Of a DNA stretch of 55,438 nucleotides, positions 31,646 to 51,598 are shown piece after piece. A model generated the notes under the pieces. It did not search any database. It was not told the origin of the DNA and saw only the letters and a program-made list of their open reading frames with translations. The DNA is taken from positions 1 through 55,438 of the forward strand of contig DATCJO010000210.1 in the NCBI GenBank assembly GCA_036562765.1. Direction: 5' to 3'. Position numbers and translations under genes: made by a program. Origin of the DNA: Tissierellaceae bacterium (GTDB lineage: Bacteria > Bacillota > Clostridia > Tissierellales > Tissierellaceae). Every line of letters starts with the position of its first letter. Position 1 is the first letter of the stretch.

Positions 31646-31770
31646 TTGAGCTACAAAACCTATATAGAGTTTTCTATATAGGTTTTTTGCATATTAGGGT
31701 AAAATTATTAGTGAATAGTTAATAGTGAATAGTTATTCACTATTCACTAAATAAGTGAGGTGTTGTTTTT

Positions 31771-33180
31771 ATGGGTAAAGTTTTAGGTGCAGTAATTTCC
31801 CCCCATCCTCCTATAATCGTTTCAGAAATTGGGAGGGGAGAAGAAGTAAAGGCCCAAAATACCATTGATGGGGTTAAGGCTGTAAGCAGTTACATAAAAG
31901 AAAAGTCCCCAACTACTATTATAGTCATTACTCCCCATGGGCCCCTATTTAGCGATGCCATAAGTATATCAGCGGAAAGAAATCTATATGGGGATTTTGG
32001 AAATTTCTGGCATAAAGAAGTAAAGCTTGAGTTTGAAAATAATCTTGAACTTATGAAGAAAATTATCAACAATAGTCTAAAAGAAGGTATAAGGATAGTA
32101 GCAATAGACAATTCAACAGCTAGAAGGTATAGGGTTGAGAATAAATTAGACCATGGCACAATGGTTCCCCTATATTTTGTGGATAAAGTCTATAAAAACT
32201 TTAAACTTATCCACATAACTTATGGTTTGTTGTCTCCACAGGAACTTTATAAATTCGGAAGGTGTATAAAAGAAGCAGTATTAGATTCTGACGATGATGT
32301 AATTTTGCTTGCAAGTGGAGACTTGTCTCACAGGCTGTCTCATGATGGTCCATATCCATATTCGCCTTATGGAAGAGTCTATGATGAAAAAATAGTTGAT
32401 GTCATTAGAAAAGGGAATATGGAAGATATAGTAACCTTTGATTTAGAACTGGCAGAAAGGGCAGGAGAATGCGGTTTAAGGTCATTTATGGTAATGGCAG
32501 GATTTTTAGATGGTTATAAAGTAGAATCAGAAGTATTTTCCTATGAAGGGCCCTTTGGAGTAGGATACTGTACAGCCAAGTTGGATATTAAAGGGGAGGA
32601 TTCAGATAAAGATATGTTGAAAATCCTAAAGGAAAGGGAAAGAATGAAAATAGAAGAGTTGAGAAAAAATGAAAGCCCCTATGTAAGGCTTGCAAGGATG
32701 AGCCTAGAACATTATATAAAAACAGGGAAATATATAGATGTTCCCCCTGACACTCCTGAAGAACTTCTAAAGGCTAGGAGAGGTGTTTTTGTGTCTTTAA
32801 AGAAAAATGGCATGTTGAGAGGATGTATAGGAACCATTGAACCTGTAACAGAAAATGTTGCCCATGAAATCATTAGAAATGCAGTTGCTGCAGGTACTGA
32901 GGACCCTAGATTTGATGAGGTTACTGAGGATGAATTGGATTCAATAGTATATTCTGTTGATGTATTGTATGAACCTGAAAAGGTCAATTCAAAGGATGAA
33001 TTAGATGTGGAGAAATATGGAGTCATTGTTTCATGCGGATTTAGAAGGGGTTTGCTTCTTCCTAATTTAGAGGGTGTAGATACAGTGGATGAGCAAATAA
33101 GCATAGCATTAAGGAAAGCCAATATAAGTCCTTATGAAGACTATACCATTGAGAGATTTAGGGTTGACAGATATTATTAA
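31771..33180 (+). CDS. Fusion protein with an N-terminal class-III extradiol dioxygenase/MEMO1-like (LigB superfamily) domain and a C-terminal AMMECR1 domain.
   Basis: The N-terminus reads VISPHPPIIVSEIG. The C-terminal AMMECR1 core is RGVFVSLKKNGMLRGCIGT. A radical-SAM partner is encoded immediately downstream. Confidence 0.7.
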   Translation: MGKVLGAVISPHPPIIVSEIGRGEEVKAQNTIDGVKAVSSYIKEKSPTTIIVITPHGPLFSDAISISAERNLYGDFGNFWHKEVKLEFENNLELMKKIINNSLKEGIRIVAIDNSTARRYRVENKLDHGTMVPLYFVDKVYKNFKLIHITYGLLSPQELYKFGRCIKEAVLDSDDDVILLASGDLSHRLSHDGPYPYSPYGRVYDEKIVDVIRKGNMEDIVTFDLELAERAGECGLRSFMVMAGFLDGYKVESEVFSYEGPFGVGYCTAKLDIKGEDSDKDMLKILKERERMKIEELRKNESPYVRLARMSLEHYIKTGKYIDVPPDTPEELLKARRGVFVSLKKNGMLRGCIGTIEPVTENVAHEIIRNAVAAGTEDPRFDEVTEDELDSIVYSVDVLYEPEKVNSKDELDVEKYGVIVSCGFRRGLLLPNLEGVDTVDEQISIALRKANISPYEDYTIERFRVDRYY

Positions 33181-36613: not shown

Positions 36614-36940
36614 GTGAAATTAATTATCTGTATAGTACAGGACCAAGATGCTGGAGCATTAATAGATGATTTAACTCAACATCAATTTAGGGTAACTAAA
36701 TTGTCTTCTACAGGAGGGTTCTTAAAATCAGGGAATACCACTTTGCTAGTTGGTGTTGAAGAAAAAGAAGTTGATTCTGTTTTGAGAATTATAGAAGAAA
36801 ACTGTAAGACTAGGGAAATTACAACATCCTTAATGACAATGAATATGCCAGGAGATACCTATATGCCATTCCCACTAGAAATTAGAGTAGGCGGTGCTAC
36901 AGTGTTCGTGTTGGATGTAGAAAAGCATATTAAGGTATAG
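36614..36940 (+). CDS. darA: P-II-like c-di-AMP receptor DarA (YaaQ/DUF970).
   Basis: 108 aa. MKLIICIVQDQD..FRVTKLSSTGGFLKSGNTTLLVGVEE..VGGATVFVL is close to B. subtilis DarA along the full length. It has a GTG start with a GGGGAG RBS. Confidence 0.8.
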   Translation: MKLIICIVQDQDAGALIDDLTQHQFRVTKLSSTGGFLKSGNTTLLVGVEEKEVDSVLRIIEENCKTREITTSLMTMNMPGDTYMPFPLEIRVGGATVFVLDVEKHIKV

Positions 36941-36951
36941 GAGGGAATGAT

Positions 36952-37236
36952 TTGAAACTCATAATTGCCATTATTCAGGATGATTATATAAATATGGTAA
37001 TAAAAGCATTAATGAATAATAAAATAAGGGCTACAAAACTTGCTTCAACTGGTGGATTTTTAAAGTCAGGGAATACTACACTGCTTATAGGTGTAAATAA
37101 CGACGAAGTAGACAAAGTAGTTGAATTGATTAGTGAACAATGTAAAAGCAAGAATGTCAAGTCTGGAAAAGGTGAAGTAACAGTTGGAGGAGCAAACTTA
37201 TTCATCATAGACATTGATAGGCATATAAAACTTTAA
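36952..37236 (+). CDS. Second DarA-like (DUF970) paralogue with a shorter C-terminus.
   Basis: 94 aa. MKLIIAIIQDD..IRATKLASTGGFLKSGNTTLLIGV. It has a TTG start 6 nt after an AGGAGGG RBS. It occupies the slot that yaaR holds in B. subtilis. Confidence 0.7.
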   Translation: MKLIIAIIQDDYINMVIKALMNNKIRATKLASTGGFLKSGNTTLLIGVNNDEVDKVVELISEQCKSKNVKSGKGEVTVGGANLFIIDIDRHIKL

Positions 37237-38232: not shown

Positions 38233-39462
38233 ATGGTTAAAGTAGTCGGAGTTAGATTTAAACGTGCAGGGAAAATATATTATTTTGACCCTGGTGATAT
38301 AGATGTAAAGCTAAATGATTTTGTAATAGTAGAAACTGCAAGAGGCATAGAATTTGGACATGTTGTGGTAGGGCCAAAGGAAGTGCCAGAAGAGGAAATA
38401 GTGGCTCCATTAAAAAATGTTATAAGGGTAGCAACAGATGAGGACTTTGAAATCCATAGGGAGAACAGGAGAAAGGCAAAGGAAGCCTTGGCAATATGCG
38501 AAAAGAAAGTGGAAGAACATGGGTTAGAGATGAAGCTAGTTGATGTTGAATATACCTTTGACAACAACAAGGTAATCTTTTACTTCACTGCTGATGGCAG
38601 AGTGGATTTCAGGGAATTGGTTAAGGATTTGGCTGCTATTTTCAAGACTCGAATCGAGCTAAGGCAAATAGGCGTTAGAGATGAAGCGAAGATGATAGGG
38701 GGTTTAGGCCCTTGCGGCAAGCCTGTGTGCTGTGCCCAATTTTTAGGAGAATTTGAACCTGTATCAATAAAGATGGCAAAGGAGCAAAATCTATCTTTAA
38801 ATCCTACTAAGATTTCAGGTTTATGTGGAAGGCTTATGTGCTGCTTGAAATTTGAGCATCAAGTATATGAGGAACTACTGCAAAAGATGCCTAAGATTGG
38901 TGCCATTGTAAATACTCCTGAAGGTAAAGGAACAGTAATAGAAACTTTCACATTACTTGAAAAAGTCAAAGTAAAGGTAAGGCTTCCAGATATGACAGAT
39001 GATTTATTTTTATTCCATATAAATGACATTGAAGATACAGGAGAAATGGACCCAGCCTATGAAAAATCTGGAGAAGCAGCTGAATTACCAGCAACAGAAG
39101 AAGCAAACATTGAAGAATTGGAAGAAAGTGAATTTAATGAAGTTAGCGGTTTAGATGATGTAAATGATGATGAAAATGGAGAAAAGGATTTACATTATGT
39201 AAGTGAAGAAAGGGAAATTAATGAAGAAGTCCAAGCAGAAAATCAAGAAGCACATCAAATAGAAAATGAAGTAACTGAAAGTGAAACAAGTGAAATAATC
39301 CTAGCAGATGATGAAGAAACAGAAGTTATTGAGGAAATTTATGAAGATAATGCTATTATTGAAGATAAAGTGGCAAATGTACAAGAATTGGAATCAGATG
39401 AAAAAAGAGACATAAATAATGAAAATGATAAAGATGATGAAGAGGTTGAGGATAAAGATTAA
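38233..39462 (+). CDS. ricT: PSP1-domain protein YaaT/RicT, with a D/E-rich C-terminal extension of about 150 aa.
   Basis: The PSP1 core has conserved Cys residues (GPCGKPVCCAQF, LCGRLMCCLKF). The acidic low-complexity tail runs from about aa 260 to 409. Confidence 0.85.
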   Translation: MVKVVGVRFKRAGKIYYFDPGDIDVKLNDFVIVETARGIEFGHVVVGPKEVPEEEIVAPLKNVIRVATDEDFEIHRENRRKAKEALAICEKKVEEHGLEMKLVDVEYTFDNNKVIFYFTADGRVDFRELVKDLAAIFKTRIELRQIGVRDEAKMIGGLGPCGKPVCCAQFLGEFEPVSIKMAKEQNLSLNPTKISGLCGRLMCCLKFEHQVYEELLQKMPKIGAIVNTPEGKGTVIETFTLLEKVKVKVRLPDMTDDLFLFHINDIEDTGEMDPAYEKSGEAAELPATEEANIEELEESEFNEVSGLDDVNDDENGEKDLHYVSEEREINEEVQAENQEAHQIENEVTESETSEIILADDEETEVIEEIYEDNAIIEDKVANVQELESDEKRDINNENDKDDEEVEDKD

Positions 39463-39772: not shown

Positions 39773-39783
39773 GTACATTTTAA

Positions 39784-39816
39784 CAATGCACAATGCACAA
39801 TTCACAATGCACAATT
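39784..39816. repeat. Tandem heptamer array (CACAAT[GT])n, which is ATTGTG[CA] on the other strand.
   Basis: It reads caatgcacaatgcacaattcacaatgcacaatt. Confidence 0.8.
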
Positions 39817-39822
39817 ATATTT

Positions 39823-39884
39823 AGTGAATAGTTCAGGTAAGCAGCGAAATTTACTCCTATAAATTATTAACTTTTCACTATTCA
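39823..39884. repeat. Inverted-repeat element AGTGAATAGTT, about 43-bp core, then CACTATTCA.
   Basis: The terminal inverted repeats match the element at 41612-41692, and the cores are homologous (AGGTA.G(A)AGC..AAAT..TATAAA..TTAAC.TTTT). Confidence 0.7.
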
Positions 39885-39911
39885 TTATTAATTAAGATAT
39901 TAATAATTGAG

Positions 39912-39976
39912 AATTGTGCATTCTTCATTGTGAATTAATTACAATTGTGCATTAAACATTGTGAATTGTGAATTGA
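39912..39976. repeat. ATTGTG[CA] heptamer array in the opposite orientation to 39784-39816.
   Basis: It reads aattgtgcattc..attgtgaatta..aattgtgcattaaacattgtgaattgtgaattg. Confidence 0.8.
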
Positions 39977-39998
39977 TAAAAGTAGAAAGGTGTTGTTA

Positions 39999-40745
39999 AT
40001 GCTAAATCCCAATGAGCGCATAGATATTATTCCTGGTACAAATTACAAGATAATCCAAAACAAAGAAAAGTTTTCCTATGGAATGGATGCCATTTTGTTG
40101 TCCTCTTTCGTCAAGGCTAAGGGAGTAGTAGTTGATTTAGGTACAGGGACGGGAATTATCCCCCTTAGGATATACAATGAAGAAAATGTGGATATAATCT
40201 ATGGTGTGGAAATACAAGAAGAAGTTGTCAATATGGCTAAAAGGTCTGTAGAATTAAACAATCTTCAGGATAAAATTAAGATTTTGAATGCTGACTTAAA
40301 GGAATTGACAAAACACTTTAAGAAGGCTTCAGTGGATGTGGTAACAACAAATCCACCATATATTAAAAAGGGTGCACTAATTAATCCCGCAGAAAACTTT
40401 GCCATATCCCGCCATGAAATTGCCTGCACAATAGAAGATATAATAAAGATTTCCAGTTATTTGCTGAAGCCATTAGGAAAGCTTTATATGGTACATAGGC
40501 CAAACAGGTTGGCAGATATAATATACAATCTTAGGAAATACAATATAGAACCTAAATATATAAGGTTCGTTCAACCTAAGATAGGTAAGAAGCCAAATCT
40601 GGTCTTGATGGAATGCGTAAAAGGCGGAAAGCCAGATTTAAAGTTTTATGACCCATTAATAGTCTATAATGACGACAACACTTATACTGATGAAATATTT
40701 AAAATATATGGAATGACAAAAGATGATATCCGAACATTGGAGTGA
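39999..40745 (+). CDS. SAM-dependent methyltransferase, tRNA (adenine37-N6)-methyltransferase TrmN6/YfiC-like (B. subtilis YabB position).
   Basis: The SAM-binding motif is VVDLGTGTGIIPL and the NPPY catalytic motif appears as TTNPPYI. The ATG at 39999 sits behind an AAAGGTG RBS. The track places the start at 39990. Confidence 0.75.
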   Translation: MLNPNERIDIIPGTNYKIIQNKEKFSYGMDAILLSSFVKAKGVVVDLGTGTGIIPLRIYNEENVDIIYGVEIQEEVVNMAKRSVELNNLQDKIKILNADLKELTKHFKKASVDVVTTNPPYIKKGALINPAENFAISRHEIACTIEDIIKISSYLLKPLGKLYMVHRPNRLADIIYNLRKYNIEPKYIRFVQPKIGKKPNLVLMECVKGGKPDLKFYDPLIVYNDDNTYTDEIFKIYGMTKDDIRTLE

Positions 40746-40749
40746 TAAG

Positions 40750-41574
40750 ATGAAAAAAGGGACACTGTATATATGCCCAACTCCTATAGGGAATCTTGAA
40801 GACATAACCTTGAGGGTATTAAAGGTATTAAAAGAGGTAGATTTAATAGCTGCAGAAGATACAAGGCATACAATTAAGCTTCTCAATCACTATGGTATAA
40901 AAAAGCCTTTAACATCATATCATGAGCACAATATTAAGGAAAAGGGAATTGAGCTAACAGAAAAGCTAAATCAAGGAATTAATATAGCCCTTGTATCAGA
41001 TGCAGGAATGCCGGGCATATCTGACCCCGGAGCAGATTTGATAAAAAAAGCCATAGATGAAGGCATCGATGTAGTACCCCTTCCTGGACCAACTGCCAGC
41101 ATTACTGCATTAATCATATCAGGTCTTCCTACAGACAAGTTCATCTTCTATGGTTTCCTTTCCTCAAAGAGAAATGAAAGAATTAAGGAATTAGAAGAAA
41201 TAAGAAAGTACAAGATGACAACAATTATATATGAAGCTCCCCACAGGCTGCTGGATTTACTTGAAGACATGGATAAAGTATTAGGCAATAGGAGAATATC
41301 TATTTCAAGGGAGCTAACAAAAAAATATGAAGAAACTTTTAGAGGAACACCAATGGAAGCTTTGGAAAAATTCAAATCCTCAGGCGTAAAGGGAGAATTT
41401 GTAATCGTAGTTGAAGGAAATAAAGAAGAAGAAAATTTAGATATAGATATAGAAGAAATTTTAAGGGAATATATAAGTCGAGGATATACCAAAAAAGAAG
41501 CTGTCAAAATTATCTCCCAAAAATATAATTTGCCTAAAAATGATGTCTATAAAATAAGCCTTAAATTAGATTAA
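40750..41574 (+). CDS. rsmI: 16S rRNA (cytidine1402-2'-O)-methyltransferase RsmI.
   Basis: MKKGTLYICPTPIGNLEDITLR is the tetrapyrrole-methylase-fold RsmI N-terminus. The track ORF starts at 40723. Confidence 0.9.
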   Translation: MKKGTLYICPTPIGNLEDITLRVLKVLKEVDLIAAEDTRHTIKLLNHYGIKKPLTSYHEHNIKEKGIELTEKLNQGINIALVSDAGMPGISDPGADLIKKAIDEGIDVVPLPGPTASITALIISGLPTDKFIFYGFLSSKRNERIKELEEIRKYKMTTIIYEAPHRLLDLLEDMDKVLGNRRISISRELTKKYEETFRGTPMEALEKFKSSGVKGEFVIVVEGNKEEENLDIDIEEILREYISRGYTKKEAVKIISQKYNLPKNDVYKISLKLD

Positions 41575-41611
41575 CAAATACACCAAATATAGTTAATAGT
41601 GTATAACGAAT

Positions 41612-41692
41612 AGTGAATAGTTTAGGTATGAAGCAAATAAATTCGCTTCTACTATAAAAAACTTTTTAACCTTTTACTATTCACTATTCACT
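41612..41692. repeat. Inverted-repeat element AGTGAATAGTT, about 53-bp core, then ACTATTCACTATTCACT.
   Basis: It has the same termini and a related core to the element at 39823-39884. Confidence 0.7.
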
Positions 41693-41704
41693 ATTAACTT
41701 TACC

Positions 41705-41761
41705 AATTCACAATTTAATCAATTATATAAATGGAAAAAATTGTGAATTGTGCATTGTGAA
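41705..41761. repeat. Operator/promoter-like unit with the layout AATTCACAATT, TCAATTATATAAATGGAAA, AATTGTGAATTGTGCATTGTGAA (copy A).
   Basis: It is nearly identical to 42776-42835. Internally it is palindromic (TTCACAAT...ATTGTGAA) and ends in the ATTGTG[AC] heptamers. Confidence 0.75.
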
Positions 41762-41924
41762 CTGATGAAGGGGGCTGGTTTTCATTTACAACATACACAA
41801 TGACCTAAAGGAGAAAATTAGCAGCTTAAACGACCTATTATACGAAAAATACAATACCATATTTTCTCAAGATAGAGAGTTTTTAAGAACGTTTATAAGA
41901 CAATATATCGGGCAAATTAAACCC

Positions 41925-42773
41925 ATGGAAAAGCTTGATAATAAGCATCTTGCTTTATATGAGGCAAAAGGTGGTATTGTTGGAGTAGATGGATCTACAA
42001 ACAGAGTAGGTGGAAGTTACCCTCACTTTGTAGAAGTCTTTCAAGGTTTAGCCAAATCCACTTTAATGAAGGACGAGCCTATCTATAAGGCAGATATTTA
42101 TTCCCCACTGTTTTCAAATATTCAAAAGAATGTTTTGGAAGAAGACGAAAAGAAGGAAATAGAAACTAAAAACAGATTATTATCTGACATTGAGGTAAAA
42201 GTTGCATTGGAGGCTGTAAAAAGATATAAGCCCTTTGGAGTATTAATGGATGGTTCATTAATTAGATACTATATATATTCCTATGATTTATGGATGCAGT
42301 TAAGAAGTGAATGTGAAGAAAAAGGTATTATACTTGTAGGAGTTATAAAGGATATAAAAACAACGATAATAGGCGACAAGCTTGGCGACGTTTACCCACA
42401 ATTTAGGATAAATGCCTATGACAGGGAGCTGTTGTTTGGAATATTAGATTATGGGGAAGTAATAATCATTGATGATGATGTAAACAGCAAGAAGAAATCA
42501 GGATATTCGTCTGTTTTCATGAGGTCTTCACGATCCCCAGCAGTTATTGGAATGGATATAATAGACAGTCAAAAGGATTATTTGGAAGAAATGAGTAGAC
42601 TTATCTTTACTTTGACACCAGAAAACAGCAGAGGAGTACCTTTATGGCTTGATTTGGTAGATAAGGAAGTCCAAATTTCCGATGCCCTAATGAAGGGATT
42701 GCTTGAAAGGTACTTGGACAGGGGCTTATATGAAAGATTTTTCGTATCAGAAAGAGCTAAAAGAACTTTATAA
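41925..42773 (+). CDS. NurA-like nuclease (RNase-H-like fold). The 5' end is uncertain because the frame stays open upstream to about 41769.
   Basis: 282 aa. There are two DGS motifs (GIVGVDGS and VLMDGSL) plus acidic clusters, as in NurA motifs. It sits directly upstream of a HerA-like ATPase. Confidence 0.5.
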   Translation: MEKLDNKHLALYEAKGGIVGVDGSTNRVGGSYPHFVEVFQGLAKSTLMKDEPIYKADIYSPLFSNIQKNVLEEDEKKEIETKNRLLSDIEVKVALEAVKRYKPFGVLMDGSLIRYYIYSYDLWMQLRSECEEKGIILVGVIKDIKTTIIGDKLGDVYPQFRINAYDRELLFGILDYGEVIIIDDDVNSKKKSGYSSVFMRSSRSPAVIGMDIIDSQKDYLEEMSRLIFTLTPENSRGVPLWLDLVDKEVQISDALMKGLLERYLDRGLYERFFVSERAKRTL

Positions 42774-42775
42774 TA

Positions 42776-42901
42776 ATTCACAATTCACAGTTTTATCAAT
42801 TATATAAATGGAAATAATTGTGAATTGTGCATTGACTAAGTGCATTGTGAATTAATTAAGTGAATTGTGCATTATAAATTGATTTAGTGCATTGTGAATT
42901 G
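42776..42901. repeat. Copy B of the operator-like unit plus an extended GTGCATTGTGAATT array.
   Basis: It reads aattcacaattcacag..tcaattatataaatggaaat aattgtgaattgtgcattg ..agtgcattgtgaatta..agtgaattgtgcatta..agtgcattgtgaattg, and lies immediately upstream of the HerA-like gene RBS. Confidence 0.75.
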
Positions 42902-42918
42902 ACAAAGGAGGTGTTTCT

Positions 42919-44766
42919 ATGAAAGTAGTTGGCATAACTACCCAACAGGAAGTTTACATAGGCTCTAGGGATAGAAACTTTAGAATAAATGAATTTGTAG
43001 TAATTGAAGATCCGCAACAAAAGGATTTATTGGGGGAAGTCGTTGAAGCATATACCTTTAATAGATATATTCCTCTAAACATTGGCGGAGATTTCATAGA
43101 CAATTCTGTTTTGGAATCCTTAAAGTCTTTGGGTTATAATATAGACGAAGAGACTATTTATGTTGCAAAAGTAAGGTTACTAAACGAAGCTTTATATCCA
43201 ATTCAAACTGGTTCAGATGTAAGGCTGCCTAAGTTTAATGAAATAAAGAACCTAATGATTAAGGCGACCAAGGAAGATGGCTTGGTTTTAGGAACTATTA
43301 GGAATACAGACGATATGGCAGGTGAAATGGACCAAGAATTTAAGAATCTATTATATACCTTTGAAGACAATGAGTTATGCCCTCAAAGGGAAATTCCATT
43401 TATATTGGATTTGAAATCCATGTACCAGTATCCTCACATAGGTGTCTTTGGTGGTTCTGGCTCAGGCAAGTCCTTTGGCCTTAGGGTAATACTTGAGGAG
43501 TTAATGAGGCACAATATACCAACTATCGTATTAGATCCCCATTTTGAAATGGACTTTAGTGAAAATGCACCATATTTTGAAAACAGCGAAATAGATTTTA
43601 CTGATAGATTTAAATGCTTGCAAGTAGGATACCATGTTGGTGTAAAATTCCAGGATTTAAGTCCTCAAGATTTAAAAAACCTACTAGATGCTGCATCGCC
43701 AATTACGGATGCTATGAACAATGCAGTAGATGTATTGTTTAAATATAATGATTCATTTCAAAGTTTTTATGATAGAATAAAGATGTTAATTGAAGCTCAA
43801 GAAGAAGGTTCTTTAGAAAAAATTGAAAACAGGATAAACCAAGCGGAAAATGAAGAGGAAAGAAAAGCATGGGAGAAAAGAAAAGAACTCTATTTGTCCT
43901 ATGATAAGACATGCCCATACAGCTCTGTTAGAGGCATAATGTGGAGGTTAAAAAGGCTAGACAATGAAGGCATATTTTCTAAGGATATAAGAGAGATTGA
44001 AGATGGTCTTCAAAGAGGAAAACTGATTGTCATTCAAGGTAATACTAGGATACTTCAAGTATTCAGTACCTATCTATTAAATAACCTTTATCATAAGAGA
44101 AGGGATTATAAGGATTCACAGTACAAGAATACACCTTCTGATTATTTCCCACCATTTATAATAGTTACTGATGAAGCCCACAATTTTGCACCAAAGGGTT
44201 ATAACTCCCCATCCAAGTCAATATTGAAGGAAATATCTCAAGAAGGAAGAAAATACGGAGTATTTCTAATTTTAGCTACCCAAAGGCCTACCCTCTTGGA
44301 TGAAACCATTACTGCTCAGTTAAATACTAAATTTATCTTCAGAACCGTAAGGGCCTCAGACATTCAAACTATAAAGGAAGAAACAGACCTTACTGTAGAA
44401 GAAACAAGAAGGCTTCCATATTTGAGAACAGGAGATGTGTTTATATCTTCTGCAGCTATGGGAAGAACCATATTTGCAAGAATAAGGGCAGCTATTACAT
44501 CTAGCCCCCATACAGAAAACCCATTTGATGAATTGAAAAATAAGGAAAAAGAAGACGAGGATAGATTTTTAAATATGATAAAGACCAAACTTCCCATAAT
44601 GGAAACCGACTTAATAAATCTCATATCAGAACTGGAAAAGGAATATGATGTTACATTTACTGTGAATTCTTTGGAAGATAGGTTAAAAACACTAGCAAAA
44701 AAAGGATTGATATGTAGGGAAGAAACAATTTTTGGGTATAAATATTATATTCCTAAAGCTAATTAA
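42919..44766 (+). CDS. HerA/FtsK-class ATPase (DUF87-type) with a C-terminal extension of about 100 aa.
   Basis: Strong AGGAGG RBS. Walker A is GVFGGSGSGKSFGL and Walker B is FIIVTDEAHNF. An N-terminal beta-barrel-like region is followed by a RecA-like core. Confidence 0.7.
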   Translation: MKVVGITTQQEVYIGSRDRNFRINEFVVIEDPQQKDLLGEVVEAYTFNRYIPLNIGGDFIDNSVLESLKSLGYNIDEETIYVAKVRLLNEALYPIQTGSDVRLPKFNEIKNLMIKATKEDGLVLGTIRNTDDMAGEMDQEFKNLLYTFEDNELCPQREIPFILDLKSMYQYPHIGVFGGSGSGKSFGLRVILEELMRHNIPTIVLDPHFEMDFSENAPYFENSEIDFTDRFKCLQVGYHVGVKFQDLSPQDLKNLLDAASPITDAMNNAVDVLFKYNDSFQSFYDRIKMLIEAQEEGSLEKIENRINQAENEEERKAWEKRKELYLSYDKTCPYSSVRGIMWRLKRLDNEGIFSKDIREIEDGLQRGKLIVIQGNTRILQVFSTYLLNNLYHKRRDYKDSQYKNTPSDYFPPFIIVTDEAHNFAPKGYNSPSKSILKEISQEGRKYGVFLILATQRPTLLDETITAQLNTKFIFRTVRASDIQTIKEETDLTVEETRRLPYLRTGDVFISSAAMGRTIFARIRAAITSSPHTENPFDELKNKEKEDEDRFLNMIKTKLPIMETDLINLISELEKEYDVTFTVNSLEDRLKTLAKKGLICREETIFGYKYYIPKAN

Positions 44767-47061: not shown

Positions 47062-48093
47062 TTATTCAAGTATATATACTTTTACTTTCCTTTTGCCAAA
47101 TTTAGCTACATCTTGTGAGTTTTCAAAGAATAAGTCAATCCTATTTCCCTTGATTGCTCCTCCTGTATCTTCAGCTACAGCAAAACCATAATCTTTTGAT
47201 CCATCTAGGCTTTGGATATATAATTTTGTACCTAGTGGAATTACCTTAGGGTCTACAGCTACAACACCTGGCCTAGCCTTTGTGCCAGAAGCTGTTATGC
47301 CGTAGTATTTATCCCCTGGCAGCTTTTTACAGCTTTCATATGATAAATCATAGGCAGTTGCTGTCATAACAATGGCTTTTTTATACCTGACACTGCCTCT
47401 TGATGTCACAAGAATATCTTTTGTGCCTCTTTCCATAATTTCATTTATGGGTTCTGTAATTACCTCTTGCCCCACTATTATAGTTGAGGCAACTTGACCA
47501 TTAACGATTTCCTTTTTAACAGTAACTTTTCTAAGCCCATCTTTACCTTTTTGGATAGTCCTTGTTGTTCCAATATCCAATTTTGGATTTTTATTAACAA
47601 CTTTTTCAAAAGGAATAACCTCATCATATGTTTCAAAAACTTCTTCAACCCTGTAGACTTCTATTGTACTTCCAGGGGATACTTTTTCTTCCAAACTTGG
47701 ATTAGTGAAATCCTTCTCTCCTAGTTGTATGCTATTGTCAGCCAAAATGCTTTTTACAGTATCATGGGTTGATTTCACATCTACTAACACTTTATCCACT
47801 GAAATAGTGTACACTTTCGGATTTTTTATAACAATAGTCATGTTGTCTACAAGGGTTACATCTAATGGGTGGCTTATGTAAGCCCCTTCTTCCAATGTTA
47901 TATTTTCTTTTAGGAGAAGTTCTTCCAATGTATTAGCATTTGAGGTAAAAGATTTTTCTTCATTGTCTAAGATTATGGTAACTTTAGTTAAATTGCTTTG
48001 ATATAAGTATATTCCTAAGGATATAGTTAATGCTATAGCTAGGAGTATCAATACTGGAATTTTCTTCTTCCAATTTGTTGGTTGAGTTTCCAT
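47062..48093 (-). CDS. yabE: YabE-like protein with TM/DUF348, a G5 domain and a 3D (MltA-like) domain.
   Basis: N-terminal TM. The G5 segment is TIQKGKDGLRKVTVKKEIVNGQV and the C-terminal 3D domain is VAVDPKVIPLGTKLYIQ..AVAEDTGGAIKGNRIDLFF. Confidence 0.8.
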   Translation of the reverse strand: METQPTNWKKKIPVLILLAIALTISLGIYLYQSNLTKVTIILDNEEKSFTSNANTLEELLLKENITLEEGAYISHPLDVTLVDNMTIVIKNPKVYTISVDKVLVDVKSTHDTVKSILADNSIQLGEKDFTNPSLEEKVSPGSTIEVYRVEEVFETYDEVIPFEKVVNKNPKLDIGTTRTIQKGKDGLRKVTVKKEIVNGQVASTIIVGQEVITEPINEIMERGTKDILVTSRGSVRYKKAIVMTATAYDLSYESCKKLPGDKYYGITASGTKARPGVVAVDPKVIPLGTKLYIQSLDGSKDYGFAVAEDTGGAIKGNRIDLFFENSQDVAKFGKRKVKVYILE

Positions 48094-48309: not shown

Positions 48310-48600
48310 TATATCAAATAAGGTAAAATATAGAAATGACATTAAAAATTGCAAATTCAAAGGTAGTGAAGGGGAGAGTAGGATAAATTTTAATCTAAAG
48401 AGAGCTGGGTAAGGTGAAAGCCAGTGATTAAAATTATTCCGAAGATGGCCCCGGAACCTTGTGGTCGATATGTAGGCCACGACGGAAGCAGCCGTTACGC
48501 TGTAAGGTTTTAAACCTACTGAGGCCTAAATCGCAAGATTTAGGCGAATTAGAGTGGTACCACGAAGTCAACCTTCGTCTCTAAGAGATGAAGGTTTTTT
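48310..48600 (+). ncRNA. T-box riboswitch leader, Met-specific, controlling metG.
   Basis: It has an AGAGAG box in stem I, a candidate specifier AUG at 48445-48447, the T-box sequence AATTAGAGTGGTACCACG at 48547-48564, and a terminator AACCTTCGTCTC/GAGATGAAGGTT followed by T6. Confidence 0.7.
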
Positions 48601-48623: not shown

Positions 48624-48690
48624 AACTATTCATTAATTAGTTATTCACTATATTTACTATTGATTGTTAACTATTAACTATTCACTATTA
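48624..48690. repeat. Cluster of ACTATTCA(CT) motif copies between the T-box terminator and metG.
   Basis: It reads aactattcatta, ttattcacta and aactattcactatta. Confidence 0.55.
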
Positions 48691-48723
48691 ACTATTAACT
48701 AAAAATATGGGGGGTTATGAGAA

Positions 48724-50670
48724 GTGAAAAAATACTACTTGACTACACCAATTTATTATCCTTCTGACAATCTACACATTGGACACACTTACACAACAGT
48801 AGCTGCAGATGTAATTAAGAAGTTTAAGAAGATGCAGGGATACGATGTATATTTTGTTACAGGTACTGATGAACACGGACAAAAAATTCAAAACAAGGCA
48901 AAGGAAAATGGATTAAGTCCAAAGGAATATGTAGATAAAATTGTTGCAGATATTAAAAAACTTTGGAAGCTGTTAGAAATTGATTATGACACTTTCATAA
49001 GGACCACAGACCCACAACATGAAAAAGCAGTTCAGGACATATTCATGAAGTTGTATGAAAAAGGAGAAATATATAAGTCAACATATAAGGGCCTTTACTG
49101 TACTCCTTGCGAATCTTTCTGGACAGAGTCCCAATTAGTAGATGGAAAATGTCCAGATTGCCATAGAGAAGTTCATCCTGCAGAAGAAGAAGCATATTTC
49201 TTCAGGCTTTCAAAGTATAGGGATAAGCTGTTAAAGTTTTATGAAGAACATCCAGATTTTATCCAACCTGAATCTAGGAAAAACGAAATGATTAATAACT
49301 TCTTAAAAGATGGTTTGGAAGATTTATGCGTAACAAGAACAAGCTTTGACTGGGGAGTTAAGGTTCCTTTTGATCCAAAACATGTAATATATGTATGGAT
49401 AGACGCCTTAGCTTGCTATATTACAGCTTTAGGATATGGTTCAGATAACGATGAGAACTTCAAAAAATATTGGCCAGCTGATGTCCACCTAGTTGGCAAG
49501 GAAATTGTCAGGTTCCACACCATAATATGGCCAGCACTTTTAATGGCTTTAGGATTAGATATACCAAAGAAGGTATTTGGCCATGGCTGGATATTGTTTG
49601 AGGACGATAAGATGTCTAAGTCTAAAGGAAATGTAATTTATCCTGAACCACTTATTGAATTATACGGTATAGATGCATTTAAATACTTCTTATTGAGGGA
49701 ATTCTCCTTTGGCCAAGATGGAAACTTCAGCAGGGAAAAATTCTTGCAAAGATTAAACTCCGACTTGGCAAATGACTTAGGAAACTTGGTAAGCAGAACT
49801 GTTACCATGATTCAAAAATACAATGATGGAGTAATACCATCACCAGCAGTGGAAGAAGAAATAGATAAGTCCTTGAAAGATTTGGCTGTTAGTATTGCAC
49901 CTAAAGTTGAAGAATACATGGACCAACTAAACTTCTCACAAGCATTAGAGGAAATATGGAAGCTAATTAGAAGGACAAACAAGTATATAGATGAAACTAC
50001 ACCATGGATTTTGGGAAGCGAAGGCAGGAAAGATAGGCTTGATACAGTACTTTACAACCTAACTGAATCCTTAAGGATTATAACAATATTGATTAAGCCA
50101 TTTATGGAAAAGACATCCTTAGAAATAAGAAGGCAATTAGGAATTGATGGAGAAATCTTGTGGGAAGATTCAAAGGTTTGGGGTAAACTAGAAGTAGGTG
50201 GAAAAGTAGGAGATAGGAAGATAATATTCCCAAGGCTTGACATTCAAAAAGAATTGCAAAAACTAAATGAAGCTAATGAAAAGCTAATAATAGAAAGAAG
50301 CAAAGTGAAGAAGGAAAATAAAGAAGAAGCTAAAGAGGAAATAGAAGAAATTACAATCGACGACTTTAAAAAAGTTCAATTAAGGGTAGCAGAAGTTATT
50401 TCTTGCGAAAACCATCCTAATGCTGATAAACTATATGTATTGAAGTTGAAATTAGGGGAAGAAGAACGACAAGTCGTATCAGGAATTAAAAAATACTATA
50501 AACCAGAGGACCTAGTAGGCAAAAAGGTAGTAGTAGTTGCAAACTTAAAGCCTGTGAAACTTAGAGGTGTTGAATCTAAGGGAATGATATTGGCTGCAGA
50601 AGACACAGAAGGAAATCTTACTTTAGTATCAACCCTAGAAGACATAGCTTCCGGTGCAACAATTTCATAA
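48724..50670 (+). CDS. metG: Methionyl-tRNA synthetase with a C-terminal EMAP/Trbp111-like tRNA-binding domain.
   Basis: It has the HIGH motif (NLHIGH), KMSKS, a zinc knuckle CTPCESF..CPDC, and a C-terminal OB-fold (VAEVISCENHPNADKLYVLKL). Confidence 0.95.
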   Translation: MKKYYLTTPIYYPSDNLHIGHTYTTVAADVIKKFKKMQGYDVYFVTGTDEHGQKIQNKAKENGLSPKEYVDKIVADIKKLWKLLEIDYDTFIRTTDPQHEKAVQDIFMKLYEKGEIYKSTYKGLYCTPCESFWTESQLVDGKCPDCHREVHPAEEEAYFFRLSKYRDKLLKFYEEHPDFIQPESRKNEMINNFLKDGLEDLCVTRTSFDWGVKVPFDPKHVIYVWIDALACYITALGYGSDNDENFKKYWPADVHLVGKEIVRFHTIIWPALLMALGLDIPKKVFGHGWILFEDDKMSKSKGNVIYPEPLIELYGIDAFKYFLLREFSFGQDGNFSREKFLQRLNSDLANDLGNLVSRTVTMIQKYNDGVIPSPAVEEEIDKSLKDLAVSIAPKVEEYMDQLNFSQALEEIWKLIRRTNKYIDETTPWILGSEGRKDRLDTVLYNLTESLRIITILIKPFMEKTSLEIRRQLGIDGEILWEDSKVWGKLEVGGKVGDRKIIFPRLDIQKELQKLNEANEKLIIERSKVKKENKEEAKEEIEEITIDDFKKVQLRVAEVISCENHPNADKLYVLKLKLGEEERQVVSGIKKYYKPEDLVGKKVVVVANLKPVKLRGVESKGMILAAEDTEGNLTLVSTLEDIASGATIS

Positions 50671-51551: not shown

Positions 51552-51575
51552 AGTGAATAGTTAAGAGTGAATAGT
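51552..51575. repeat. Two direct copies of AGTGAATAGT, about 25 bp upstream of rnmV.
   Basis: It reads cAGTGAATAGTtaagAGTGAATAGTgaatt. Confidence 0.6.
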
Positions 51576-51598
51576 GAATTGATATAGAAAGAGGGAAA

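Follow-up and report, generated by a model that had tools for sequence, protein, structure and literature searches.

Do a nuclease gene and an adjoining ATPase gene, lodged between the housekeeping genes rsmI and metG, form an acquired defence module, or do they belong to the standing DNA-processing equipment of the chromosome? This question is raised by a locus in a 55,438-bp contig from a Tissierellaceae metagenome-assembled genome (MAG), hereafter the window, whose plus strand carries a nurA-herA pair. A sequence-only reading had presented this pair as an inserted accessory module and as a candidate for anti-phage defence. Here, we find that the pair is a chromosomally fixed and vertically inherited housekeeping locus, and that its two products probably make up a NurA-HerA machine of the archaeal type for the resection or degradation of DNA ends, one that holds a constant place in the yabB-rsmI block of many Bacillota. 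As such, it represents a known system in an experimentally uncharacterised Bacillota clade, the variant features of which are a C-terminal tail on HerA, the housekeeping synteny, and a probable ATT start codon for nurA.

The two proteins

Hidden Markov models, predicted folds, and conserved catalytic residues all support the smaller protein as a NurA nuclease of the RNase-H fold, as had been proposed from its motifs. The open reading frame (ORF) returned by the ORF caller (282 residues, 41925-42773, plus strand) does contain both GIVGVDGS and VLMDGSL, and its product matches Pfam PF09376 with 58.4-58.8 bits (cutoff 21), covering positions 3-254 of the 254 in the profile. Because a sequence search of the Protein Data Bank with the NurA profile recovered no NurA, a fold search was needed, and this placed the predicted RNase-H-like fold nearest to the solved NurA structures. 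In the model, two long helices lie ahead of β1, an arrangement that has been described as the archaeal NurA type (PMC9960219). Asp69, Glu137, and Asp156 (numbered from the ATT start discussed below) are invariant in 34 homologs, as are Asp290, Asp293, and Glu295 near the C-terminus, and the catalytic set of Asp (β1), Glu (α1), and Asp (β4) along with a C-terminal acidic residue is thereby present. Compared at the sequence level, the order and spacing of Asp69, Glu137, and Asp156 agree with those of Sso D58/E116/D133 and Pf D51/E105/D126/H411. Moreover, these homologs already carry the name NurA at NCBI.

While the 282-residue ORF exists, it is a cut-off call rather than the full protein, as the homologs measure 328-336 residues and their conserved first ~53 residues are encoded in frame in the stretch between a stop at 41766-41768 and ATG 41925. 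Between 41769 and 41924 there is no in-frame ATG, GTG, or TTG, and no Shine-Dalgarno sequence precedes ATG 41925. The ATG at 41765, where the pair had been taken to begin, lies in another frame and runs into a stop after 12 codons. A Shine-Dalgarno-like GAAGGGGG can be read at 41767..41774 (plus strand), 9 nt 5' of an ATT at 41784. When we compared the start regions of 21 relatives (loci of relatives are given L numbers), the codon aligned with the ATG of most of them (M-Y-x-I/L...LKEK) was ATT in the window, in L002 (L002:10010), in L008 (L008:1877), and in T. praeacuta (L005:7001), ATA in L014 (L014:8795), and TTG in L006 (L006:6912), with a GGAG/GGGG box located 6-9 nt 5' of it in each relative having a non-ATG start. 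The most economical reading is that nurA probably starts at ATT 41784 and encodes ~329 residues (41784..42773, plus strand), and such a start would mean a low level of NurA translation. This probable start also matters for annotation, since gene callers shorten or mis-start nurA in several species (the 282-residue and 'MIII...' calls).

An alternative would have nurA inactivated, with a 1-nt insertion in the G5 run at 41770-41774 breaking an ancestral ORF that began at ATG 41765, leaving either the 282-residue product or none at all. Removal of one G does bring ATG 41765 into frame and gives MKGLVFIY..., which resembles the MPKGVVYIY of homolog P0002, and the missing canonical start and Shine-Dalgarno sequence described above would fit this view as well. 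Yet the identical sequence occurs in an independently assembled contig, the remainder of nurA downstream is fully conserved with no more lesions, and L002, L005, and L008 share the aligned ATT (and L014 and L006 their ATA and TTG), each with its ribosome-binding site 6-9 nt upstream. In L008, moreover, an in-frame TAA stands immediately 5' of the GGAG/GGGG box, for which a frameshift cannot account. On the comparison of the 21 start regions and the independent assembly, we set the frameshifted pseudogene aside as most improbable, in favour of the ATT start.

The larger protein (615 residues, 42919..44766, plus strand) is likewise supported as a HerA/FtsK-class ATPase by profile matches, predicted fold, and conserved ATPase residues, again in line with the sequence-only reading. 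It matches the Pfam DUF87/HerA central domain with 70 bits (cutoff 23.2, E 4e-19), and its AlphaFold2 model (predicted local distance difference test score of 88.8) consists of a β-rich, HAS-barrel-like N-terminal domain (strands 2-4, 11-16, 26-30, 37-48, 80-87, and 100-102; no Pfam HAS-barrel match was found), a RecA-like ATPase core with a helical insertion, and a C-terminal tail. In a Foldseek search, where the alignments ran over 550-650 columns, the foremost hit was Sso HerA (4d2i, 1e-27, template-modelling score normalised to the target of 0.73), with the Thermococcus kodakarensis HerA-NurA complex (9x1m) at 2e-27, and the top 50 hits were all HerA. Lower in rank were the anti-phage HerAs (1e-22 to 1e-18) and the Deinococcus radiodurans HerA (1e-18). 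The nearest named HerAs outside the clade are all archaeal, and both members of the pair resemble the archaeal type more closely than the characterised Deinococcus type.

The signature motifs of the ATPase are all in place. In the Walker A motif (GGSGSGKS, residues 178-185, 43450..43473, plus strand), Gly178, Ser180, Gly181, Ser182, Gly183, and Lys184 are invariant among 43 diverse homologs and Gly179 is kept in at least 90% of them, with Ser185 in neither group. The Walker B motif (IIVTDEAH, residues 414-421, 44158..44181, plus strand) is followed by conserved QEGRKYG and TQRP motifs, and over this stretch Asp418, Glu419, His421, Glu442, Arg444, Lys445, Tyr446, Gly447, Gln455, and Pro457 are invariant in the same homologs, and Arg456 nearly so. 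The arginine-finger region (Arg444/Arg456) is thus present along with both Walker motifs.

Beyond the core lies the tail at the C-terminal end (residues 528-615, 44500..44763, plus strand), in which an SPHxxNPFDEL motif, with its Ser, Pro, His, second Pro, and Phe invariant and its Glu and Leu nearly so, leads into a winged-helix-like domain. The AlphaFold2 model shows three helices (535-557, 562-576, and 582-594) and a β-hairpin (599-603 and 606-610), and profile and Pfam searches with the tail gave sub-threshold matches only, spread over winged-helix families (Hop2/TBPIP, MCM_C, TrmB, LexA, and ESCRT-II), so that the earlier suggestion of a possible winged helix appears reasonable for the predicted structure. 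None of the solved HerAs matches the tail by sequence, HerAs from outside the clade are 500-570 residues long, and alignments with them mostly stop by about query residue 550. We suggest that the tail may contact DNA or a partner protein.

A fixed place behind rsmI

To place the pair among its relatives, a scan with one genome per species was made, which gave at least 559 species with a relative. The best 80 of these, from Tissierella, Gudongella, Soehngenia, Anaerosalibacter, Schnuerera, Peptoniphilus, Tepidibacter, Alkalithermobacter, Fonticella, Mahellales, and Thermoactinomycetaceae, were used for synteny, with the neighbouring proteins of the window being searched against the 80 loci by tblastn. 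NurA is found directly 5' of HerA at all 72 loci with room upstream (median gap ~15 nt), and rsmI lies 5' of NurA on the same strand at 63 of the 64 loci having at least 1.5 kb upstream, being no more than 740 bp away in 59. This rsmI-NurA-HerA order, also seen in the gene calls of close relatives, spans several orders and even reaches the Thermoactinomycetaceae of the class Bacilli. In fact, the percentage identity of HerA follows that of metG at nearly equal values (r = 0.98, n = 15) and that of rsmI as well (r = 0.88, n = 64). The full-length HerA subfamily is sharply bounded, as an exhaustive search of 1.84 billion cluster representatives gave ~60 representatives at 50% identity with E < 1e-70 and the tail covered, beyond which the scores of full-length proteins drop to ~1e-27 (fragments apart). 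The pair is therefore a chromosomally fixed, vertically inherited housekeeping locus, and the idea of an inserted accessory module fails on the very comparison that the sequence-only reading had named as decisive, because the pair keeps the same position across the relatives.

Some loci depart from this order. In one Tissierellia MAG (L077:7655-11818), the only locus with genes splitting the pair, the order is rsmI-NurA-rnmV-tatD-HerA, and rsmI is separated from nurA by 2.5-5.6 kb of intervening genes in L079, L081, L085, and L086, which come from Thermoactinomycetaceae and two MAGs.

What does vary across the 80 loci is the gene 3' of herA. As had been read, the surroundings of the pair in the window include rsmI upstream (40723-41574), preceded by a yabB-like methyltransferase gene (39990-40745), and downstream a dCache_1-GGDEF-HD_5 gene (44775/44787-47009) and metG (48724-50670). 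Between the last two are a yabE-like G5/3D gene on the minus strand (47062-48093) and the T-box leader of metG (48357-48585; Rfam, 128.9 bits). In base composition, the pair does not differ from its surroundings. Only the closest relatives (L002-L005, L007, and L008) have the GGDEF gene behind HerA, whereas L006 and all others lack it, and hence it is a lineage-specific addition and the HerA-yabE junction a variable spot. For this gene, ATG 44787 is the more likely start, in agreement with the L001 call. The encoded dCache-GGDEF-HD_5 protein has SGDEF for GGDEF, with an I-site-like RESD motif just upstream, and HHERYDGLGHP (GHP for GYP), and the T. praeacuta counterpart bears an extra PAS domain.

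Function and rival explanations

In sister branches of the subfamily, HerA is found next to Mre11/Rad50-like genes, as it is in archaea. A Clostridia MAG (L165:1-6174) encodes a HerA and a NurA with 44% and 30% identity to those of the window, and this HerA carries the same C-terminal tail. Preceding them in the row are a Mre11-like phosphoesterase, a Rad50-like N-half (482 residues), a coiled-coil protein (85 residues), and a C-half (215 residues), so that, by its predicted products, L165 shows in a bacterium the four-gene layout familiar from archaea. A further branch, with a tail-bearing HerA (33-37% identity for the plasmid hits, 33-40% over all loci with the module), resides on Firmicutes megaplasmids of 300-720 kb (B. 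thuringiensis BTB_502p, P. polymyxa pSC2, C. perfringens pJFP838A, and others) and on large replicons, where the module comprises a helix-turn-helix protein, a ~900-residue metallophosphoesterase-Rad50N fusion, a small coiled-coil protein, a ~213-residue Rad50C-like protein, and HerA, with no NurA, and where SAF/Tad-pilus/type II secretion system (T2SS) ATPase genes follow in several cases (L088, L149, L150, and L164; also L087 and L089). These Mre11/Rad50-like matches fall below the curated thresholds but cover the right ends of the Rad50 models, and the linkage is limited to the sister branches (L165, L164, L087-L089, L149, and L150). With such neighbours across its branches, the context of the subfamily points to DNA-end processing and not to immunity. 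We had considered whether the plasmid hits indicate mobility of the pair, but this was ruled out, as they form a distinct, NurA-less paralog branch. A copy of the plasmid-branch module in C. difficile BI1 lies near a CBASS-like cGAS/DncV-SAVED pair.

By analogy with the archaeal and Deinococcus complexes, a HerA hexamer would draw a DNA end through its central channel at the expense of ATP and pass the strands on to a NurA dimer that sits on the N-terminal barrel of HerA, where they would be digested by two-metal catalysis of the RNase-H type. The outcome would be broken DNA ends that are resected or degraded for recombinational repair. In the window, the supply of NurA would probably be throttled by the ATT start, and the HerA hexamer would display six extra winged-helix-like domains, through which DNA or a partner may be bound.

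The closest known counterparts are the archaeal HerA-NurA systems of Saccharolobus solfataricus, Pyrococcus furiosus, and Thermococcus kodakarensis (2ygk, 4d2i, and 9x1l/9x1m), which have the same two adjacent components, provide the best structural matches for both window proteins, and share the Asp-Glu-Asp catalytic residues and the Walker and arginine motifs, though at an identity of only 15-19%. In contrast to these, the order in the window is nurA followed by herA, no mre11-rad50 genes adjoin, the setting is a bacterial housekeeping block after rsmI, and HerA has the extra 88-residue winged-helix-like tail with its SPHxxNPFDEL motif. A bacterial pair of the same domain families, presumed to carry out ATP-dependent end resection, is known from Deinococcus radiodurans and Thermus thermophilus (7f6d, 7wrw, and 7wrx; PMC9960219, PMC5448004). 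Bacterial NurA-HerA had been called barely characterised, and this was overstated given the published structures and biochemistry for D. radiodurans (PMC9960219), although our search of the available literature found no paper on a Firmicutes NurA-HerA pair. From the anti-phage systems Sir2-HerA and DUF4297-HerA and from TdpAB (8wiv, 8xau, 9c1m, 8ziq, and 8wet), the window pair differs in its bona fide NurA effector, and in the fixed, vertically inherited nature of a locus that is not island-like, with no modification genes adjoining. Neither TdpA/TdpB-level similarity nor phosphorothioation genes, which would mark a member of TdpAB, were found.

Several points weigh against the archaeal-type end-processing function. 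Knock-outs of the pair in Deinococcus and Thermus changed damage resistance only modestly or even improved it (PMC9960219). No Mre11/Rad50 genes adjoin the pair in the window, where its neighbours are rsmI and the GGDEF gene. The NCBIfam equivalogs for archaeal HerA are missed by a wide margin (74.9 against 970 bits for NF040819, and 66.9 against 800 bits for NF040937, both with partial alignments), and with HerA being 13-19% identical to the solved HerAs, the function is transferred over a long distance. Moreover, the 80 genomes were chosen for having herA, and so the word core, as applied to the pair, stands for conserved position and vertical descent and not for a census of presence.

Two other functions have been weighed against end processing. 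In a defence role, which the sequence-only reading had favoured, the HerA motor would activate or feed a nuclease effector acting on foreign DNA, much like Sir2-HerA, DUF4297-HerA, or the NurA/HerA-like TdpAB. Defence genes are typically patchy and mobile. In this case, 63 of 64 species from different orders and classes have the pair in the same place next to rsmI, and the pace of divergence is the same as for metG. What likeness there is to anti-phage HerAs scores 59.9 and 40.1 bits with NCBIfam models whose cutoffs are 850 and 800, and the PADLOC and NCBIfam matches to such HerAs (40-81 bits) are almost confined to the ATPase core, mostly over ~100 residues. The best stretch in almost all PADLOC matches is at about residues 385-543, the longest match (to the 314-position mad8 model) spans query residues 171-527, and the two weakest cover just 172-211. 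NurA gives no match to a defence model except for DruH at 17 bits, and no Sir2, DUF4297, or dnd genes adjoin the pair. Searches of 50,697 phage records and of IMG/VR found no full-length relatives, the PHROG matches are confined to the ATPase core, and the plasmid hits belong to the separate branch without NurA. We thus regard defence as very unlikely.

A different housekeeping role for the same machine, be it the processing of stalled or reversed forks, the clearing or segregation of chromosomal DNA, or a DNA-transfer pump, has more in its favour, though we still hold it to be unlikely. The pair is situated within a replication and translation block close to tmk and holB, the FtsK-HerA superfamily holds segregation and DNA-transfer pumps (the profile matches of HerA include CedD, TraB, and FtsK), the paralogous megaplasmid branch adjoins Tad-pilus/T2SS ATPase genes, and the repair phenotypes of bacterial knock-outs elsewhere are weak (PMC9960219). 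Nevertheless, the partnership with NurA and the Mre11/Rad50-like genes beside HerA in the sister branches specifically favour end processing, and gene order in this region is generally conserved, so that the neighbours may tell little about function.

If end processing is taken further, the pair could be a core machine of ancient origin that many anaerobic and thermophilic Bacillota express constitutively, perhaps serving as a principal resection or fork-processing pathway alongside or instead of AddAB/RecJ, with nuclease dosage limited by the ATT start and with the tail as a clade-specific contact to DNA or a partner. We offer this wider proposal as a tentative one, and consider it possible rather than likely. 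Were it true, genetically tractable hosts would offer a bacterial model of the archaeal pathway. In any event, finding a HerA gene beside a nuclease gene does not by itself imply a defence system, for synteny and evolutionary rate here show a locus of the housekeeping type. A coherent Bacillota clade of archaeal-type NurA-HerA, having a distinct C-terminal domain and sister branches linked to Mre11/Rad50-like genes, could moreover help to explain the role of NurA-HerA in bacteria, where knock-out phenotypes have so far been weak.

Spacer repeats and other features of the window

Repeat arrays of the ATTGTG type had been described as preceding each of nurA, herA, and the GGDEF gene, and as the sign of a separately regulated module. 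Clusters of period-7 arrays are indeed present ahead of nurA (41589-41761) and herA (42775-42901), but the GGDEF gene, which starts 8-20 nt after herA, lacks one. Similar arrays are also found directly 5' of the ribosome-binding sites of yabB, metG, rnmV, and an ORF at 31771. In the window as a whole, arrays of the ATTGTGA, ACTATTC, and TATTAAC types are located at 31705-31735, 39783-39975, 41589-41699, 48651-48701, and 51552-51579, often as inverted pairs forming long hairpins, and in related species the corresponding sites hold arrays built from other unit sequences (e.g., three copies of ATTGTCA before nurA in L008). Over the whole window, ATTGTG itself shows no enrichment (41 occurrences where 32.8 are expected; 41 was reached in 8 of 100 shuffles), and only its local clustering is notable. 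As there is none at the GGDEF gene and similar ones precede housekeeping genes, the arrays are no mark of separate regulation; instead, these heptamer arrays are a genome-wide intergenic feature of the lineage and not the signature of an accessory module.

In the rsmI-nurA spacer, a long hairpin of inverted period-7 arrays (ATAGTGA ... ACTATTC) was identified by Tandem Repeats Finder at 41589..41699, and the RNA fold of 41575-41783 has an energy of -50.6 kcal/mol (z = -5.5). Behind it lies the first copy of a ~55-nt hairpin element (41703..41761, plus strand), with arms AATTCACAATT and AATTGTGAATT, core TCAATTATATAAATGGAAA, and trailing ATTGTG heptamers. The second copy (42775..42834, plus strand) lies in the 145-nt nurA-herA spacer and is followed by ATTGTG-type arrays up to 42901. 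There are exactly two copies, one in each spacer, with an identical 19-nt core, and the element is absent from relatives of 87-90% identity. A dispersed hairpin resembling a miniature inverted-repeat transposable element or a repetitive extragenic palindrome was ruled out, as neither the window nor 89 loci contain further copies, and the 59 hits of the 19-mer core in metagenomes come without the arms and are put down to chance. From its two copies only, its absence in relatives, and the chance nature of the metagenome matches, we conclude that the hairpin is a local and recent duplication.

The nurA-herA spacer, which is 145 nt here against ~15 nt in most relatives, is occupied differently in one of the 87-90% identical relatives, where it extends to 365 nt (L002:11005-11371) and holds another, GC-richer insert flanked by ATTGTG-type heptamers. 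This suggests that the spacer is a recurrent insertion site in the sub-lineage. Rfam returned only the metG T-box and no match in the nurA or herA spacers, and promoter and terminator scans performed no better than on shuffled sequences.

Elsewhere in the window, between tmk and holB, two tandem paralogous genes for PII-like cyclic-di-AMP receptors (CdAMP_rec) are present at 36614-37236, and both paralogues are kept in all the close relatives examined. A PSP1/RicT-like protein (38233-39462) is 409 residues long compared with 297-299 in relatives, the additional ~110 residues at its C-terminal end being an acidic, repetitive, low-complexity tail encoded by 12-nt tandem repeats (39154-39271).

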